Below, piece by piece: positions 1 through 4,835 of a stretch of 4,835 nucleotides of DNA; position 1 is the stretch's first letter, and each line of letters starts with the position of its first letter. The stretch lies in the IMG/VR virus record IMGVR_UViG_2693429508_000011. One strand, 5' to 3'. The notes below the pieces were generated by a model. That model was not told the DNA's origin. It searched no databases and worked only from the letters and a program-made list of their open reading frames with translations. The stretch is from a virus (taxonomy: Duplodnaviria > Heunggongvirae > Uroviricota > Caudoviricetes). A program made the translations under genes and the position numbers.

Positions 1-30
1 ACACTAAATCAGTAAGTTGGCAGCATCACC
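1..30 (-). mobile_element. IS1 terminal fragment: left inverted-repeat end of an IS1 copy that extends leftwards out of the window
   Basis: Positions 1-30 (acactaaatcagtaagttggcagcatcacc) are the exact reverse complement of the recalled IS1 left end GGTGATGCTGCCAACTTACTGATTTAGTGT. The element is therefore in minus orientation and its boundary is at position 30. Confidence 0.85.
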
Positions 31-137
31 GAAGTGGTAAAGAAGATAATAAAGAATAATATTTAGGGTTATAGGTCTTAGCCCATTTTAAATGGAAGGC
101 AGACATGCAGCCATGCATACTTCGCATGGCAACATAA

Positions 138-566
138 TTATTTAGACAAACTATCTAATTTTTGCGTCGCTTTTTGTGTTAGGTCGCTGTAACTGATAAA
201 CCCTACGTTAGCACCTACAATTAACACTAAGAACACTAAGCTGCATATGGATAGAGTGGCAGATTTATGCTTATGGAAAACAAAATATGCTACTATTGCA
301 CTTAATATGAAGGAAATGAATAGAAATATAGATGTTGATGTTTTTAGATATTTTTCAGGAAATAATGGGTGAGCAATAATGTATACAAGATTAAGTAGTA
401 TATAAATTGCTACCGGAATGAAAATCATGCTCCAGTGTGTATCTTTTTTGGGAGGGATTGGCTGCAAATAATCAGACACCGTTTTTCCATCAGTTTCAAG
501 AAGAATTACTAGATCTCTTACTTCACCACTGACTTGAGTGCCATCCTTAGTAGTAATGTTAATCAT
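138..566 (-). CDS. Hypothetical small membrane protein, 142 aa: about 45-aa N-terminal soluble domain followed by three predicted transmembrane helices
   Basis: ORF 138..623 trimmed to the internal ATG at 564-566, which is preceded by a strong Shine-Dalgarno GGAGGG with a 5-nt spacer (minus strand reads tttGGAGGGaaaaaATG). Three hydrophobic stretches (IFIPVAIYILLNLVYIIAHPLF, IFLFISFILSAIVAYFVF, LSICSLVFLVLIVGANVGFI). Its ATG overlaps the upstream gene's TGA as ATGA. AT-rich, unlike the neighbouring phage genes. No family recognised. Confidence 0.6.
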   Translation of the reverse strand: MINITTKDGTQVSGEVRDLVILLETDGKTVSDYLQPIPPKKDTHWSMIFIPVAIYILLNLVYIIAHPLFPEKYLKTSTSIFLFISFILSAIVAYFVFHKHKSATLSICSLVFLVLIVGANVGFISYSDLTQKATQKLDSLSK

Positions 567-940
567 TTTTTCCCTCCAAATACGATGCCCTCTACGTCTT
601 TGGAAGCTTTTTGTGATGACCACTCCTCTGAATCAGGTGATTTAATTAAAAATATTGTATCTCCATCAAAAATCGTATTTGTTCCGTAAAAATTCACATT
701 TGATAGATCACCACCAAAAACCCTCTGCCCACTCGAGGTAATTGCCTCACCTAATTTAGTAAAATTACCAGCAATAGATGATTTTCTTTTTCCACTTCTA
801 TTCAAAGTGGCTTTAATTACACCACCACCATCCTTAGAGTTAAATAATTGAATGTCCACTCCAGCAGTTGGTTGTATATATTTTGAAAGCTCTTTCTTGA
901 ACTTGTTAATATATTTATCTTTGTTTTCTTTGTTGGTCAT
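563..940 (-). CDS. Hypothetical soluble protein, 125 aa, Gly/Ser/Lys-rich; first gene of a two-gene operon
   Basis: Uninterrupted 125-codon ORF in AT-rich DNA with a single Met start at 940. Its stop (TGA, 563-565) overlaps the start of the downstream membrane-protein gene. Upstream Shine-Dalgarno is weak (GGAT). No recognisable family from sequence alone. Confidence 0.5.
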   Translation of the reverse strand: MTNKENKDKYINKFKKELSKYIQPTAGVDIQLFNSKDGGGVIKATLNRSGKRKSSIAGNFTKLGEAITSSGQRVFGGDLSNVNFYGTNTIFDGDTIFLIKSPDSEEWSSQKASKDVEGIVFGGKK

Positions 941-1027
941 TGGTTAGATCCATAGTTCTGGCTGTGATTAGGTGAAAGTATACAAGGTTTTTAAAGCGAA
1001 GATCACTGTTTTGGCTTCAAGATAGTT

Positions 1028-1056
1028 TTGATTTATCGTAATCAATCCGCCATAAT
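1028..1056 (+). promoter_or_regulatory. Candidate sigma70 promoter upstream of the nin operon (-35 TTGATT, 17-bp spacer, -10 CATAAT)
   Basis: TTGATT at 1028-1033, 17-bp spacer, CATAAT at 1051-1056, about 150 bp upstream of the ybcN start and oriented towards it. Hexamer match only, no experimental support. Confidence 0.3.
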
Positions 1057-1204
1057 CCTCTCATCGGAGCCTGAACAACTCCGGTGACTTCTGCGCATTT
1101 AAGGGGACTTAAATGCGACCACAATCTGAACTCATCACCTTGTCACAGATGCAGAAATGCACCTGCGATTTTCTGCATTCTGCGGTTTCCGTTAGGGAGG
1201 CCGT

Positions 1205-1660
1205 ATGACTCTGCCAGTAGACGGCATCAAACTCCATCGCGGTAACTTCGCGGCCATCGGCCAGCAGATTCAGCCATTGCTGGATGCCGGGCAATGCTTA
1301 CGCCTGCAGGTTAAGCCGTGGCGCGAGAAGCGCAGCCTGTCGCAGAACGCGCTCAGCCACATGTGGTACACGGAGATCAGCGAATATCTCATCGCCCGCG
1401 GCAAGACCTTCGCTACGCCTGAGTGGGTCAAAGACGCGATGAAGCACACCTATCTCGGCTACGAAAGCAAAGACCGTGTAGATGTCGTGTCCGGCGAGGT
1501 CACCACCGTCCAATCCCTCCGCCATACGTCAGAGCTGGAAACCGGCGAGATGTACATCTTCCTGTGCAAAGTCGAAGCCTGGGCGATGAATATCGGCTGC
1601 CACCTGACAATTCCGCAGAGCTGTGAATACCAGCAGCTGCGCGATAAGCAGGAGGCGTAA
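1205..1660 (+). CDS. ybcN: NinB/YbcN-family phage protein (nin region recombination / DNA-binding protein), 151 aa
   Basis: 151-aa ORF with Shine-Dalgarno GGGAGG 5 nt upstream of the ATG. Length and position (first gene of a ninE-ybcO-rusA cluster) match DLP12 ybcN as recalled. Sequence identity is recalled, not searched. Confidence 0.8.
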   Translation: MTLPVDGIKLHRGNFAAIGQQIQPLLDAGQCLRLQVKPWREKRSLSQNALSHMWYTEISEYLIARGKTFATPEWVKDAMKHTYLGYESKDRVDVVSGEVTTVQSLRHTSELETGEMYIFLCKVEAWAMNIGCHLTIPQSCEYQQLRDKQEA

Positions 1661-1830
1661 TGGCTACACCGCTTATTCGTGTCATGAACGGGCACATCTA
1701 CAGAGTATCAAATCGTCGTAAGCGTAAGCCTGAGCTGAAGCCATCCGAAATACCAACACTGCTCGGATATACCGCTAGCCTGGTTGATAAAAAATGGTTG
1801 CGACTGGCAGCAAGGAGGAATCATGGCTGA
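1660..1830 (+). CDS. ninE: NinE-family small phage protein, 56 aa
   Basis: Hand-translated ORF missing from the supplied track (below its size cutoff): [56 protein letters not shown]. Its start overlaps the ybcN stop (TAATG). The basic RKRKP motif and 56-aa length fit NinE. Confidence 0.75.
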   Translation: MATPLIRVMNGHIYRVSNRRKRKPELKPSEIPTLLGYTASLVDKKWLRLAARRNHG

Positions 1831-2113
1831 TTTGAGAAAAGCAGCGCGTGGTCGGGAATGCCAGGTAAGAATCCCTGGCGTATGTAATGGCAATCCTGAA
1901 ACGTCAGTACTGGCACATATCCGGCTGGCTGGATTGTGCGGTACCGGTATCAAACCGCCAGACCTGATTGCCACCATTGCATGTTCTGCCTGTCACGACG
2001 AAATCGACCGCCGCACATATTTTGTCGATGCTGAGTATGCAAAAGAATGCGCGCTGGAAGGTATGGCGAGAACGCAGGTTATCTGGCTGAAAGAGGGGGT
2101 TATTAAGGCGTGA
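1823..2113 (+). CDS. ybcO: YbcO-family (DUF1364-like) putative phage nuclease, 96 aa, Cys-rich
   Basis: ORF 1784..2113 trimmed to the ATG at 1823, which is preceded by AGGAGG (1812-1817). Begins [14 protein letters not shown]; 96 aa matches DLP12 YbcO. Overlaps the ninE 3' end by 8 nt. Confidence 0.8.
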
Positions 2114-2472
2114 ATACCTACAGCATCACATTACCCTGGCCTCCGAGCAATAACCGCTATTACCGCCATAATCGCGGGCGCACACACATCAGCGCAGAAG
2201 GGCAGGCATACCGCGATAACGTCACCCGAATCATTAAAAACGCAATGCTGGATATCGGCCTGGCTATGCCAGTGAAAATCCGTATTGAGTGCCACATGCC
2301 GGATCGCCGTCGCCGTGACCTGGATAATCTGCAAAAAGCCGCTTTTGACGCACTCACCAAAGCAGGTTTCTGGCTGGATGATGCTCAGGTCGTTGATTAC
2401 CGCGTTGTGAAGATGCCTGTTACCAAAGGTGGGAGGCTGGAACTGACCATCACCGAAATGGGGAATGAATGA
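2110..2472 (+). CDS. rusA: RusA Holliday-junction resolvase (endodeoxyribonuclease RusA), 120 aa
   Basis: 120-aa ORF beginning [24 protein letters not shown], recognised as RusA. GTG start at 2110 overlaps the ybcO stop (GTGA). Confidence 0.9.
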
Positions 2473-2609
2473 TGTTTGAGTTTTATATGGCAGAACTTCT
2501 TCGCCACCGCTGGGGGCATCTGCGCTTATATCGTTTCCCCGGTTCTGTTTTGACCGATTACCGAATACTGAAGAATTACGCCAAAACCCTGACAGGAGCA
2601 GGAGTATGA
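2469..2609 (+). CDS. ylcG: YlcG-family small phage protein, 46 aa
   Basis: Hand-translated ORF: [46 protein letters not shown]. Its ATG overlaps the rusA stop; size and position match DLP12 ylcG. Confidence 0.65.
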
Positions 2610-2694
2610 AGTCAGAGATAACAATCAACTAATACTGTTTTGTTGATTTTTGCTTGTAATTGGCGTTCTGGTCTGATTTTTGTGGAGTAAGTTG

Positions 2695-3078
2695 ATGCGT
2701 GATATTCAGATGGTTCTTGAGCGTTGGGGAGCGTGGGCGGCTAATAATCATGAAGATGTGACCTGGTCGTCCATTGCCGCCGGTTTTAAGGGATTAATTA
2801 CTTCAAAAGTAAAATCTCGCCCGCAATGTTGTGACGATGACGCGATGATTATTTGCGGGTGCATGGCCCGTCTGAAAAAGAACAACAGCGATTTGCACGA
2901 TTTATTAGTAGATTATTATGTAGTCGGTATGACATTCATGTCACTGGCAGGTAAGCATTGCTGCTCTGATGGTTATATCGGGAAAAGGTTACAGAAGGCT
3001 GAGGGCATAATTGAAGGGATGTTAATGGCATTAGATATCCGGTTAGAGATGGATATCGTTGTTAATAACTCTAATTAA
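2695..3078 (+). CDS. quuD: Phage late-gene antiterminator Q (phage 82 / DLP12 QuuD type), 127 aa
   Basis: ORF 2680..3078 trimmed to the ATG at 2695, preceded by GGAG (2684-2687) with a 7-nt spacer. The Cys-rich 127-aa product ([24 protein letters not shown]...) and its position after rusA-ylcG match the phage-82-type Q of DLP12. Confidence 0.8.
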
Positions 3079-3102
3079 TATGCCAATTGTTTACTAAAAA
3101 TT

Positions 3103-3128
3103 ATTAAAAATGGGGCGTTGCAACGCCC
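3103..3128 (-). terminator. Candidate rho-independent terminator for the minus-strand porin transcript
   Basis: Perfect 18-bp palindrome GGGGCGTTGCAACGCCCC (3111-3128), followed on the minus strand by a T-rich tract (ATTTTTAATAATTTTTAG), about 140 bp downstream of the porin stop. Confidence 0.4.
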
Positions 3129-3216
3129 CCAAAAATAAAGGGTAATATATAACAGAAGGTTTATATAGTTAGAAGCAAGGTTGTGCTCCTAAAGGAAGTG
3201 GCTTGAGGGAGCCACT

Positions 3217-3257
3217 TATATGTTGGGGAGGCAAAGCCTCCCGCAACATATCTTTTA
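3217..3257 (+). terminator. Candidate tR'-like intrinsic terminator downstream of Q
   Basis: Long imperfect hairpin (atatgttggggaggc / aaa / gcctcccgcaacatat, one bulged G) followed by CTTTTAG on the plus strand. Position is analogous to lambda tR' after the late promoter. A second 8-bp hairpin lies just upstream (3195-3216). Confidence 0.35.
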
Positions 3258-3266
3258 GTAATCAAA

Positions 3267-4349
3267 TTAGAACTGGTAAACCATACCTACAGCAACGATA
3301 TCATCGGTAGCAACGCCAGATGCTTTCGTGAAATCGCTCTTATCAATCAGGTTGATTTTGTAATCAACAAAAGTGGACATATTTTTGTTGAAGTAATAGG
3401 TTGCACCTACATCAATATATTCAACCAGGTCCTGATCACCCCACGCACCCAAGTCTTTTCCTTTAGATTGCAGGTAAGCAACGGACGGACGCAGACCGAA
3501 GTCGAACTGATATTGTGCAACTACTTCGAAGTTTTGTGCTTTGTTGGCAATATGGTTATTACCAAAAACAGTCATGTTCTGGGTTTCAGAATAGGTGGTA
3601 GCCAGATAGATGTTGTTCGCATCATATTTCAGACCAGCTGCCCATACTTCAGCATTTTGACCAGATGCATTCAGGCTGTTGTTACCGTAGATAACCTGAT
3701 TATTAGTGCGGTCAGATTTAGCATAGGTTGCACCTACACCGAATCCTTCATACTCATAAGTAGTGGAGAAACCGAAACCATCACCATTAGCTTCAGTTAC
3801 GTCAGTGCGGTCATTTTTACCCTGATACTGAGCAGCAAAGTTCAGACCATCAACCAGACCAAAGAAGTCGTTGTTACGATAAGTTGCAACACCAGTGGTG
3901 CGACCAGTCATGAACACATCTGTTTGAGTCCAAGTGTCACCACCGAATTCTGGCAGGACGTCAGTCCACGCACCGATGTCGTATGCTACACCGTAGTTAC
4001 GGCCGTAATCGATGGAGCCGTAGTCACCGAATTTCAGGCCAGCGAAGGCAAGACGGGTTTTATCTTTGGAGGAACCTTGAGATTCAGCGCGGTTGCCTTT
4101 GAATTCATATTCCCACTGACCGAAACCAGTCAGTTGATCGTTGATTTGGGTTTCACCTTTGAAGCCAAGACGGGCATAAGTAGTATCACCATCATCTGCA
4201 TCATTAGAGGAGAAGTAGTGCTTAGCATTAACTTTCCCGTACAGATCCAGCTTGTTACTGTCTTTATTATAAATTTCAGCTGCCTGAGCAGACATCGCCA
4301 TCAGTACTGATGCAGCTACAGCAGAAATTGCCACTGTTAATTTTTTCAT
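3267..4349 (-). CDS. nmpC: Outer-membrane general porin, OmpC/OmpF/PhoE family (prophage converting porin, NmpC/Lc-like), 360-aa precursor
   Basis: ORF 3267..4409 trimmed to the ATG at 4347-4349 ([23 protein letters not shown] signal peptide, AAGGG Shine-Dalgarno upstream). Mature N-terminus [17 protein letters not shown]...LGFKGETQ...[12 protein letters not shown] closely resembles OmpC. C-terminus ...VGMVYQF ends in the Phe typical of beta-barrel porins. Location after Q on the opposite strand matches DLP12 nmpC. Confidence 0.9.
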
Positions 4350-4456
4350 CGTGAGCCCTTTTTTTGAACTATTATTAAAAAATGATGTCACTGCGCGATA
4401 AATATTCATCTAATCAATGTGATTATTTCAAGATGTAAGTTTTGGTTTCTCGTTTG

Positions 4457-4782
4457 NNNNNNNNNNNNNNNNNNNNNNNNNNNNNNNNNNNNNNNNNNNN
4501 NNNNNNNNNNNNNNNNNNNNNNNNNNNNNNNNNNNNNNNNNNNNNNNNNNNNNNNNNNNNNNNNNNNNNNNNNNNNNNNNNNNNNNNNNNNNNNNNNNNN
4601 NNNNNNNNNNNNNNNNNNNNNNNNNNNNNNNNNNNNNNNNNNNNNNNNNNNNNNNNNNNNNNNNNNNNNNNNNNNNNNNNNNNNNNNNNNNNNNNNNNNN
4701 NNNNNNNNNNNNNNNNNNNNNNNNNNNNNNNNNNNNNNNNNNNNNNNNNNNNNNNNNNNNNNNNNNNNNNNNNNNNNNNNNN
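4457..4782. other. Run of 326 N (assembly gap or masked sequence); content unknown
   Basis: Continuous n characters. The two ORFs in the track spanning it (4419..4796 and 4423..4818) are artefacts of translating N. Confidence 0.95.
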
Positions 4783-4804
4783 GTTTACGTACGTAAAAAA
4801 TTGG

Positions 4805-4835
4805 GGTAATGACTCCAACTTATTGATAGTGTTTT
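4805..4835 (-). mobile_element. IS1 terminal fragment: right inverted-repeat end of an IS1 copy that extends rightwards out of the window
   Basis: Positions 4805-4835 (ggtaatgactccaacttattgatagtgtttt) are the exact reverse complement of the recalled IS1 right end AAAACACTATCAATAAGTTGGAGTCATTACC. Same minus orientation as the IS1 end at 1-30. Confidence 0.85.

Follow-up and report, generated by a model that had tools for sequence, protein, structure and literature searches.

A porin gene on the strand opposite to the late antiterminator gene of a lambdoid prophage raises two questions: which porin does it encode, and do the Q-dependent late transcripts of the prophage run across it in antisense? 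Both were addressed in a single 4,835-nucleotide stretch of DNA, referred to here as the window (Table 1). Positions 3267 to 4349, on the minus strand, hold an uninterrupted gene for NmpC (Lc/OmpD group), a general porin long known from phages. It is, in our judgment, very probable that this NmpC-type porin forms a moron placed between quuD and the late promoter pR', that late transcription does not cross it, and that the prophage carrying it is marked by IS1.

Table 1. Coordinates of the features discussed in the text (position 1 is the first nucleotide of the window)
Feature	Position	Strand	Basis
Second IS1, terminal 30 nt (IRL end), same orientation as the IS1 at 4805..4835	1..30	-	Sequence; IS1 self-match in relative L014
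quuD, Q21-family late antiterminator, 127 aa	2695..3078	+	Phage_antitermQ PF06530, E 4e-53; convergent with porin
Reverse-oriented cargo cassette (moron): porin, terminator, upstream region	3055..4782		Left, loss of homology to PhiR40_1 / 933W Q; right, start of pR' homology
Structured spacer, Q stop to porin stop, 188 nt, five hairpins	3079..3266		RNA folding
Intrinsic-terminator-like site of the porin transcript, GGGGCGTTGCAACGCCCC then T-rich ATTTTTAATA	3102..3129	-	Terminator scan; same site in relative L003
Porin CDS, NmpC/Lc/OmpD-type general diffusion porin, 360 aa + stop	3267..4349	-	ORF listing, Pfam, PDB, identity matches
Equivalent of the IS5B insertion / target duplication, TTCG here vs TTAG in K-12	3325..3328		K-12 annotation, BLAST coordinates, junction sequences
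Porin signal peptide, residues 1-23, cleaved before AEIYNK	4281..4349	-	Mature solved OmpC/OmpF/PhoE chains begin at porin residue 24; N terminus conserved in alignment
Visible porin leader/upstream region	4350..4456	-	AT-rich; Shine-Dalgarno-like AAGGG at 4356-4360
Masked run, 326 N, most of the porin upstream/promoter region	4457..4782		N-run coordinates; 261 nt in relatives
Upstream half of putative late promoter pR', -35 TTTACG at 4784-4789 plus 15 nt of spacer	4783..4804	+	Alignment with annotated 933W and VT1-Sakai pR' and DLP12-type relatives
IS1 terminal 31 nt (IRR end), in the pR' spacer	4805..4835	- (transposase)	Exact match to IS1 end in L003; matched features annotated IS1 family

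The porin gene is intact

The minus-strand open reading frame closes with a TAA at 3267-3269 and can be opened at an ATG at 4409, giving 380 amino acids, or at an ATG at 4349, giving 360. The shorter form was chosen: RefSeq WP_000737275.1, an identical 360-residue protein, is annotated from the ATG at 4349, and inspection of the sequence places a Shine-Dalgarno-like GGG/AAGGG 6 nt before it. The open reading frame listing and the full-length alignments gave no frameshift and no truncation. A preliminary description of this DNA had called the frame complete and proposed alignment against NmpC and OmpC; that alignment is now complete and maps the differences to loops, and the completeness of the frame is borne out by the uninterrupted reading frame, by a full-length match to Porin_1 (PF00267; porin residues 29-360 aligned with all 337 profile positions, E = 3.1e-153) and by 100% identity to phage porins.

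Solved chains of OmpK37, OmpC, and OmpF align with the porin from their first mature residue, at porin residue 23/24, through to the last residue (PDB; E = 1e-137 to 1e-120). Because the mature N termini of solved porins align there, the signal peptide is set at 23 residues, with cleavage between AQA and AE. The protein ends in ...VGMVYQF, which supplies the terminal aromatic Phe associated with outer-membrane assembly. The signal peptide and C-terminal Phe of the preliminary description are thus both present. The end-to-end alignment with solved 16-strand porins supports a 16-stranded beta-barrel, and an AlphaFold2 model likewise has 16 strands, at moderate confidence (mean pLDDT of 71, with L3 below 50). 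Residues K16, R42, R82, R132, D113, and E117 (OmpF numbering), those of the eyelet in OmpF, are all conserved in the alignment, together with the PEFGGD motif.

In the scheme suggested by these features, the 23-residue Sec signal peptide would be removed from the precursor, and the mature chain would form a beta-barrel of 16 strands that has the usual L3 eyelet, its insertion proceeding through the BAM pathway by means of the C-terminal ...YQF. Judged by homology, the product would be a channel for non-specific diffusion, supplementing OmpC/OmpF in the outer membrane or taking their place.

Relatives of the porin and the IS5 site of K-12

The closest of the named E. coli porins was K-12 NmpC joined across IS5 (91.4% identity), followed by OmpN (68%), PhoE (64.7%), OmpC (64.0%), and OmpF (62.2%). 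OmpD proteins of Salmonella and Citrobacter were about 77 to 82% identical over the full length (about 80% for Salmonella OmpD), and proteins labeled "porin protein LC" were 89 to 90% identical, these names being transferred annotations. On sequence comparison, the porin falls in the NmpC/Lc/OmpD group, with OmpC, OmpF, and PhoE more distant from it than NmpC/OmpD. The term "OmpC-like" used in the preliminary description is therefore right as to the general porin family but loose, given 64% identity to OmpC versus 91% to NmpC and about 80% to OmpD. The porin passes the NCBIfam "porin OmpC" subfamily model and fails the PhoE and OmpF equivalog cutoffs; the former result explains its RefSeq name. 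The chromosomal OmpC, OmpF, PhoE, and OmpN of E. coli share its fold family, type of signal peptide, eyelet residues, and C-terminal motif but are only 62 to 68% identical to it, and the window porin is encoded in prophage DNA, not at the ompC locus. An orthologue of chromosomal OmpC was ruled out by the 64.0% identity and the prophage location.

Identical porins (100%) were found in the ECOR-derived phages PhiR34_1 and PhiR68_2 and in E. coli strains 15A and CV839-06, and porin matches occurred in 3736/5426 complete E. coli genomes. PhiR34_1 and PhiR68_2, as well as ev099, ev243, 4A7, and Perceval, whose porins are 94 to 98% identical, have the same Q / porin / holin arrangement as the window. 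The identical protein in sequenced ECOR-derived phages agrees with the earlier view that this is a prophage-borne porin of a group that is established phage cargo. OmpD of Salmonella and Citrobacter shares the short L4 form with the window porin, and phage records call the porin gene OmpD. In Salmonella, by contrast, OmpD is a chromosomal porin and not prophage cargo.

The K-12 counterpart is NmpC of the cryptic prophage DLP12 (qsr'), which occupies the same location: ybcN-ninE-ybcO-rusA-ylcG-quuD, then the opposite-strand porin, then essD-rrrD-rzpD. Residues 1-148 of K-12 NmpC are identical to the window porin, which is 5 residues shorter overall and differs in loops L4, L5, L6, and L8. Most of the differing alignment columns (28/36) fall in predicted loops L3-L8. 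The differences cluster in predicted surface loops, as would be expected with exposure to phages and host immunity.

The statement in the preliminary description that K-12 nmpC is disrupted by IS5 near its 3' end was correct. The K-12 annotation treats the gene as a pseudogene that IS5B interrupts 58 nt ahead of the stop, leaving a distal fragment of 58 nt, whereas the window copy is intact. When read into IS5, K-12 NmpC loses its last strand and terminal Phe. BLAST and junction comparison showed the window to align across the K-12 insertion point with no IS5. The absence of IS5 at the 3' end of the porin was thus noted correctly, but its site was misplaced, the equivalent position being 3325-3328 rather than 3267.

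A probable reverse-oriented cargo cassette holding the porin

To the left of the cassette, the quuD product belongs to the Q21 family, which PF06530 represents (PMC9388147), and it matches the Q21 entries 6JNX/6P18 in the PDB (E = 8e-7). Assignment as a Q82-type protein was ruled out by the same family definition and the agreeing PDB match. The product is 78% identical to 933W Q, with homology ending at RLEMD. Homology to the Q proteins of both 933W and PhiR40_1, the latter a porin-less phage, stops about 8 codons before the quuD stop, and DNA homology to PhiR40_1 ends at window position 3054. The final ~8 codons of quuD would thus be part of the cassette itself.

Between Q and the lysis genes, the porin stands on the opposite strand in the window, K-12 DLP12, CV839-06, PhiR34_1, and L014, a relative that departs from the window at a single base and a single indel (99.96% identity). 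In the window, the genes ybcN-ninE-ybcO-rusA-ylcG-quuD adjoin the porin on one side, and the late promoter and lysis region lie on its other side. The slot between Q and pR' is empty in 933W, VT1-Sakai, and 1720a-02, a presence/absence pattern of the kind used to recognize morons, and it is filled by other reverse-oriented genes in PhiR40_1, SfII, phi467, and Stx1_499. The porin strand also has, at 3129-3112, a terminator of its own, GGGGCGTTGCAACGCCCC followed by a T-rich tract. The porin would accordingly be a self-contained reverse-oriented moron that brings along this terminator and presumably also a promoter (masked here), inserted between quuD and the Q-responsive pR' of a DLP12/phage-21-like lambdoid prophage.

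Pfam and PADLOC assigned no function to the alternative slot cargo genes or to the open reading frames at the left end of the window, with one exception, SfII_50, which matched the PADLOC candidate system PDC-M53A. The proposed contents of the slot are thus a porin here and uncharacterized genes elsewhere, one of them a PADLOC defense candidate.

Position and direction of the late promoter

The elements that make up a Q cassette are Q, pR', a sigma-dependent pause element, and a terminator (10.1101/651190), and in Stx phages pR' lies directly downstream of Q (PMC7547250). The window and its relatives share with the canonical Q-pR'-terminator cassette (phage 21, 933W, and H-19B type) a Q21-family Q and a homologous pR'/qut/terminator block, but their arrangement differs. 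In the canonical cassette, Q and pR' overlap; in the window, about 1.7 kb of reverse-oriented cargo stands between them, and pR' is split by IS1. The pR'/qut/terminator block that directly follows Q in 933W and VT1-Sakai aligns here to the far side of the porin, from 4783, so that pR' homology begins 1.7 kb past the Q stop instead of directly after Q. This block faces away from the porin, toward the holin, and in relatives it is followed by a terminator-like hairpin and a P21-type holin. The pR' assignment is based on homology, the reference features of 933W and VT1-Sakai being themselves annotated as putative, and the native hexamers match the consensus at only 8/12 positions.

With pR' located past the porin and directed the other way, toward holin, lysozyme, and Rz, Q-dependent late transcripts should not cross the porin. 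The porin and the late operon are most likely divergent, both starting from one AT-rich intergenic region. Antisense transcription of the porin could arise only from early transcription that reads through Q.

Transcription across and of the porin

Such read-through would involve early, pR-derived transcripts under N-type antitermination that pass Q and then the porin before reaching pR', and we regard it as possible, though falling short of likely. The terminator scan found no canonical plus-strand terminator in the spacer from the Q stop to the porin stop; the hairpin at about 3220-3253 is followed only by CTTTT. In lambda, early transcripts are known to read through past Q. Against this, the spacer is unusually structured on the plus strand (fold z-score of -6.42, compared with -8.85 on the porin strand; zero shuffles folded as well) and might halt unmodified polymerase or make it pause. 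The early regulatory region of the prophage, including any N-type antiterminator, lies beyond the window.

The porin might also be intact but silent, with nucleoid proteins bound to its AT-rich upstream region, and contribute nothing in this strain. The upstream region is about 30% G+C, and a simple sigma-70 scan of the visible window sequence and of the relatives L003 and L014, which are unmasked, identified no promoter upstream of the porin; the stretch corresponding to masked positions 4457-4782 is 261 nt in L001-L004 and L014. The literature describes nmpC as a quiescent or dormant porin in laboratory strains, there owing to IS insertions. The known silent copies, however, carry IS5 or IS1 in the gene, and neither is present in the window porin. 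Moreover, NmpC protein was detected in the STEC strain PMK5 (PMC9731836), and nmpC mRNA in Shigella is anaerobically induced and partly FNR dependent (PMC4229854), so expression has been seen in wild STEC and Shigella. The strict conservation of barrel and eyelet alongside variable loops is the pattern of a gene under selection. We consider a silent porin unlikely.

Two further aspects of regulation were considered. Control by MicC, as for Salmonella ompD, was rejected: the best predicted duplex (-17.1 kcal/mol) was set against -14.4 ± 2.4 kcal/mol for shuffled targets, and 13% of the shuffles were as good. A scan of the window and relative L003 at Rfam gathering thresholds retrieved zero known RNA families.

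Far less probable is the model that follows from the preliminary description, in which a late promoter right after Q yields Q-antiterminated transcripts that run antisense through the porin and shut it off during lytic growth. That description correctly reported Q and the porin as convergent (quuD on the plus strand, porin on the minus strand), the canonical cassette does have pR' immediately past Q, and a short remnant similar to the -35 region of pR' (GTTTAC..TAAAAATT) lies 12 nt past the Q stop. This remnant, however, has no -10 at usable spacing, and the promoter scan found no sigma-70-like promoter on the plus strand from 2900 to 4456, including the interval between Q and the porin stop. 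The pR'/qut/terminator homologue instead occupies the far side of the porin and is directed away from it, and in porin-less relatives the pR' block stays beside the late genes whatever occupies the slot. The claim that antiterminated late transcripts cross the porin is thus not upheld, and the divergent arrangement, with pR' on the far side of the porin, is preferred.

IS1 copies

The IS1 at 4805-4835 separates the -35 element of pR' from its -10 element. In L014, this right-hand IS1 is complete (768 bp) and flanked by an 8-bp target duplication, AAAATTGG; the left-hand IS1 is a 231-bp remnant, and the lysis genes continue past the right-hand copy. The ECOR-derived lambdoid phages are complete genome records without IS1, whereas the prophage in the window is interrupted by IS1 copies, one of them inside pR'. 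The exact pR'/IS1 junction was not found in 5426 complete E. coli genomes and was present in two IMG/VR contigs, L014 being one of the two.

The right-hand IS1 represents a simple insertion, because it has its own 8-bp target duplication in L014. That the two IS1 ends of the window, which share an orientation, instead delimit a Tn9-like composite transposon mobilizing the nin-Q-porin segment is extremely improbable and was rejected in view of this duplication, the left-hand remnant, and the normal prophage order of the segment, with lysis genes beyond IS1. The insertion is also a different event from the nmpC lesion of E. coli B type, in which IS1 is reported inside nmpC; in the B lineage, excision of IS1 from nmpC has been reported to activate the gene.

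The IS1 end may have created a hybrid late promoter, in which it contributes a better -35 (TTGGCA) placed 17 nt from the native TATGCT. As a joint proposal that we advance tentatively, and hold to be rather less than even in likelihood, the junction of the Q21 gene and the late promoter is a general exchange slot for reverse-oriented cargo, and IS1 rebuilt pR' as a hybrid instead of simply killing it. Such a slot may have fixed recombination anchors, one at Q codon ~120 and one at the -35 element of pR'.

Significance

An intact phage porin of the NmpC type is already known and ordinary. Intact nmpC-type genes occur in the majority of E. coli genomes as well as in temperate phages that have been sequenced, so the locus adds little that is new about the porin itself. 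Likely effects of NmpC on permeability, antibiotic entry, and the phage-receptor landscape have already been studied; for instance, NmpC activation alters cefotaxime resistance (bioRxiv 10.64898/2026.08.19.745717). If the hybrid promoter is real, it could change the response of the lysis operon to Q while leaving the porin untouched. For this family of prophages, the finding amounts to a correction of annotation: DLP12/phage-21-like prophages have their late promoter beyond the reverse-oriented cargo cassette and not adjoining Q. Models of interference between late transcripts and such cargo consequently need to take account of where pR' actually lies.

A complete porin gene of the NmpC type

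The open frame of the porin ends in TAA (3267-3269); in the mechanical ORF list it starts at ATG 4409 (380 aa). Starting at ATG 4349 gives a 360-aa porin with the mature N terminus AEIYNK and the C terminus VGMVYQF. This is the RefSeq start for the identical protein WP_000737275.1 (strains 15A and CV839-06), and an AAGGG motif lies 6 nt 5' of it. The preliminary description had the frame as complete, with a signal peptide and a C-terminal Phe, and this was borne out. Porin_1 (Pfam) matched the whole length of the protein (E = 3e-153), the terminal Phe is present, and the 360-aa frame is free of frameshifts and truncation. The solved mature chains of OmpK37, OmpC, PhoE, and OmpF align through to the last residue and begin at query residue 23/24; thus, the signal peptide comprises 23 residues. 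The protein keeps the eyelet residues K16, R42, R82, R132, D113, and E117 (OmpF numbering) and the PEFGGD motif. An AlphaFold2 model built with 24 homologues contains 16 strands (mean pLDDT of 71), with the L3 region poorly modeled.

The earlier label "OmpC-like" holds for the porin family but not for closeness to OmpC, to which identity is 64.0%, versus 91.4% for K-12 NmpC joined across IS5. Identity to OmpN, PhoE, and OmpF is 68%, 64.7%, and 62.2%, respectively, and to Salmonella and Citrobacter OmpD about 77-82%. The sole NCBIfam cutoff that the protein passes is that of "porin OmpC," a subfamily model, which accounts for its OmpC-type name in RefSeq. On sequence identity, the porin is of the NmpC/Lc/OmpD type and is not an OmpC orthologue. 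Alignment with NmpC and OmpC confirmed its completeness and mapped the differences to loops: residues 1-148 match K-12 NmpC exactly, and of the 36 alignment columns that differ, 28 lie in loops L3-L8, predicted to be at the surface (mostly L4, L5, L6, and L8). Over the 24 homologues, conservation is 0.8-1.0 in strands and periplasmic turns (save T2, at 0.51) and 0.36-0.70 in loops L1, L2, and L4-L8. A conserved barrel with variable loops is the usual pattern of a surface-exposed porin.

At 90% identity, 2741 member sequences form a cluster headed by the exact window protein, and a match occurs in 3736/5426 complete E. coli genomes. A 100% identical porin is encoded in the complete genomes of phages PhiR34_1 and PhiR68_2, in the same position relative to Q and holin, and further sequenced lambdoid phages encode one at 94-98% identity. 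The gene is intact and of an ordinary, very common kind; it was annotated before, and sequenced temperate phages are known to carry it.

The porin is flanked by the plus-strand genes ybcN (NinB-like), ninE, ybcO, rusA, ylcG, and the Q antiterminator gene, an order shared with the K-12 cryptic prophage DLP12; DNA identity to DLP12 is 90-92% on either side of IS5B. K-12 nmpC is an annotated pseudogene in two fragments (the distal one of 58 nt), with IS5B between duplicated TTAG. The earlier statement that IS5 disrupts it is correct, but the site had been placed at 3267 and in fact lies 58 nt inside the gene. IS5 is not present at the equivalent site in the window. There TTAG reads TTCG, a synonymous change (ACT to ACG) in a Thr codon; thus, this allele is without the K-12 IS5 insertion site.

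Coordinates of features in the window
Feature	Position	Strand	Remark
IRL end of left IS1	1-30		same orientation as right IS1
Left-end ORF	138-566	-	low G+C (about 32-39%, both ORFs); between replication region and ybcN
Left-end ORF	563-940	-	overlaps preceding ORF
Q (quuD)	2695-3078	+	127 aa
Q-porin spacer	3079-3266		188 nt between two stop codons
pR'-like repeat	3089-3107		12 nt past Q stop
Porin	3267-4349	-	NmpC type
Equivalent of K-12 IS5 target	3325-3328		TTCG
N run	4457-4782		326 nt
Start of pR' block	4783	+	
IRR end of right IS1	4805-4835		last 31 nt

Position of the late promoter

Q belongs to PF06530, the Q21 family (PMC9388147), and matches solved Q21 structures. The canonical late cassette runs from Q through pR', a sigma-dependent pause element, and a terminator to the late genes (10.1101/651190). 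When the sequence 5' of the holin in E. coli CV839-06 was queried against phage genomes, an 83-nt block (9467-9549 of that locus, L003) matched several hundred lambdoid phages, Stx phages among them. In 933W and VT1-Sakai this block overlaps the Q 3' end and is annotated as a putative pR', qut site, and rho-independent terminator. The alignment contains a -35 element (TTTACG), a 16-nt spacer, a -10 element (TATGCT), an ~30-nt transcript, and then AAACCCGCCG...CGGGTTT, a hairpin with a T run after it.

Phages of the window's family have the block beyond the porin and facing away from it, followed by a P21-type holin, lysozyme, and Rz. A promoter scan found no promoter-like site on the plus strand from Q to the porin stop; therefore, Q-modified late transcripts most likely begin beyond the porin and head away. 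The earlier proposal that antiterminated late transcripts run antisense across the gene is not supported. As judged from the sequence, the late operon most likely diverges from the porin rather than converging on it.

Some antisense transcription may persist. The spacer between Q and the porin contains five hairpins and folds far more stably than shuffled sequence (porin strand, z = -8.9; plus strand, z = -6.4), with no Rfam match. Its porin strand bears a canonical terminator (GGGGCGTTGCAACGCCCC then ATTTTTAATA). None was detected in the spacer on the plus strand; thus, early rightward transcription past Q might extend antisense into the porin, the early region itself lying outside the window.

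Porin expression

The region upstream of the porin is AT-rich and partly masked, and two unmasked relatives have no consensus sigma-70 promoter there. MicC is a known control of Salmonella ompD; a pairing test of MicC with the porin was negative. According to published work, an intact nmpC gene can be expressed. In STEC strain PMK5 the NmpC protein was detected (PMC9731836), and Shigella flexneri nmpC mRNA is induced anaerobically, partly via FNR (PMC4229854). In an E. coli B derivative, nmpC transcription was regained upon excision of IS1 from the gene, with a change in permeability to cefotaxime (bioRxiv 10.64898/2026.08.19.745717).

A cargo slot between Q and pR'

933W Q shares 78% identity with QuuD as far as ...RLEMD, after which the two diverge, and DNA homology to Q of the porin-less phage PhiR40_1 ends at 3054. 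Because Q homology stops here and the pR' block begins at 4783, the porin, its terminator, and the upstream region (about 3055-4782) constitute a reverse-oriented insert between Q and pR'.

Related phages (including loci L011, L012, L016, L017, and L018) have the same slot, bounded by Q codon ~120 and the pR' -35 element (window ~3055 and 4783). Its cargo is nothing, a porin, or one to three uncharacterized reverse-oriented genes: the slot is empty in 933W, VT1-Sakai, and 1720a-02 and holds one such gene in PhiR40_1, two in SfII and phi467, and three in Stx1_499. The cargo gene SfII_50 matches the PADLOC candidate defense family PDC-M53A (E = 2e-32). We note an imperfect short repeat of the pR' -35 region (GTTTAC..TAAAAATT; 3089-3107 versus 4783-4802), with no usable -10 element after it, that may be a scar of cassette-inserting recombination.

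The two left-end ORFs look like another cargo cassette. Their products are 142 aa (a predicted membrane protein) and 125 aa long; both match PHROGs of unknown function over their full length (phrog_16940 and phrog_18061), and neither has a significant match in Pfam or PADLOC. In CV839-06, IS1 is located between their counterparts.

IS1 copies and the masked stretch

The right-hand IS1 sits inside the pR' spacer, one base ahead of the -10 element, and parts TTTACG from TATGCT (4783-4835; 5432-6236 in L014, an IMG/VR contig 99.96% identical to window 1-4456). This junction occurs in two IMG/VR contigs, L014 being one, but in 0/5426 complete E. coli genomes and none of the species-representative genome set. 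The right IS1 of L014, 768 bp long, is a simple insertion with an 8-bp duplication (AAAATTGG), past which the -10 element, terminator, holin, lysozyme, and Rz are intact. At the far junction, TTGGCA from the IS1 end lies 17 nt from TATGCT, giving a predicted hybrid promoter that scores 9/12 in the scan; native pR' is an 8/12 consensus match, under the scan threshold. The left IS1 of L014 adjoins the counterpart of the replication gene P 3' end in L003 and is only a 231-bp remnant; thus, the two copies form no composite transposon.

The N run ends exactly where pR' homology starts, and exactly 261 nt separate the same flanks in five relatives, including L014. Either the mask is not length-preserving, or 65 nt are inserted 5' of the porin in the source. 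The useful by-products here are where pR' truly lies, a slot for cargo that recurs between this promoter and Q, the IS1 that interrupts pR', and a masked stretch of 326 rather than 261 nt.
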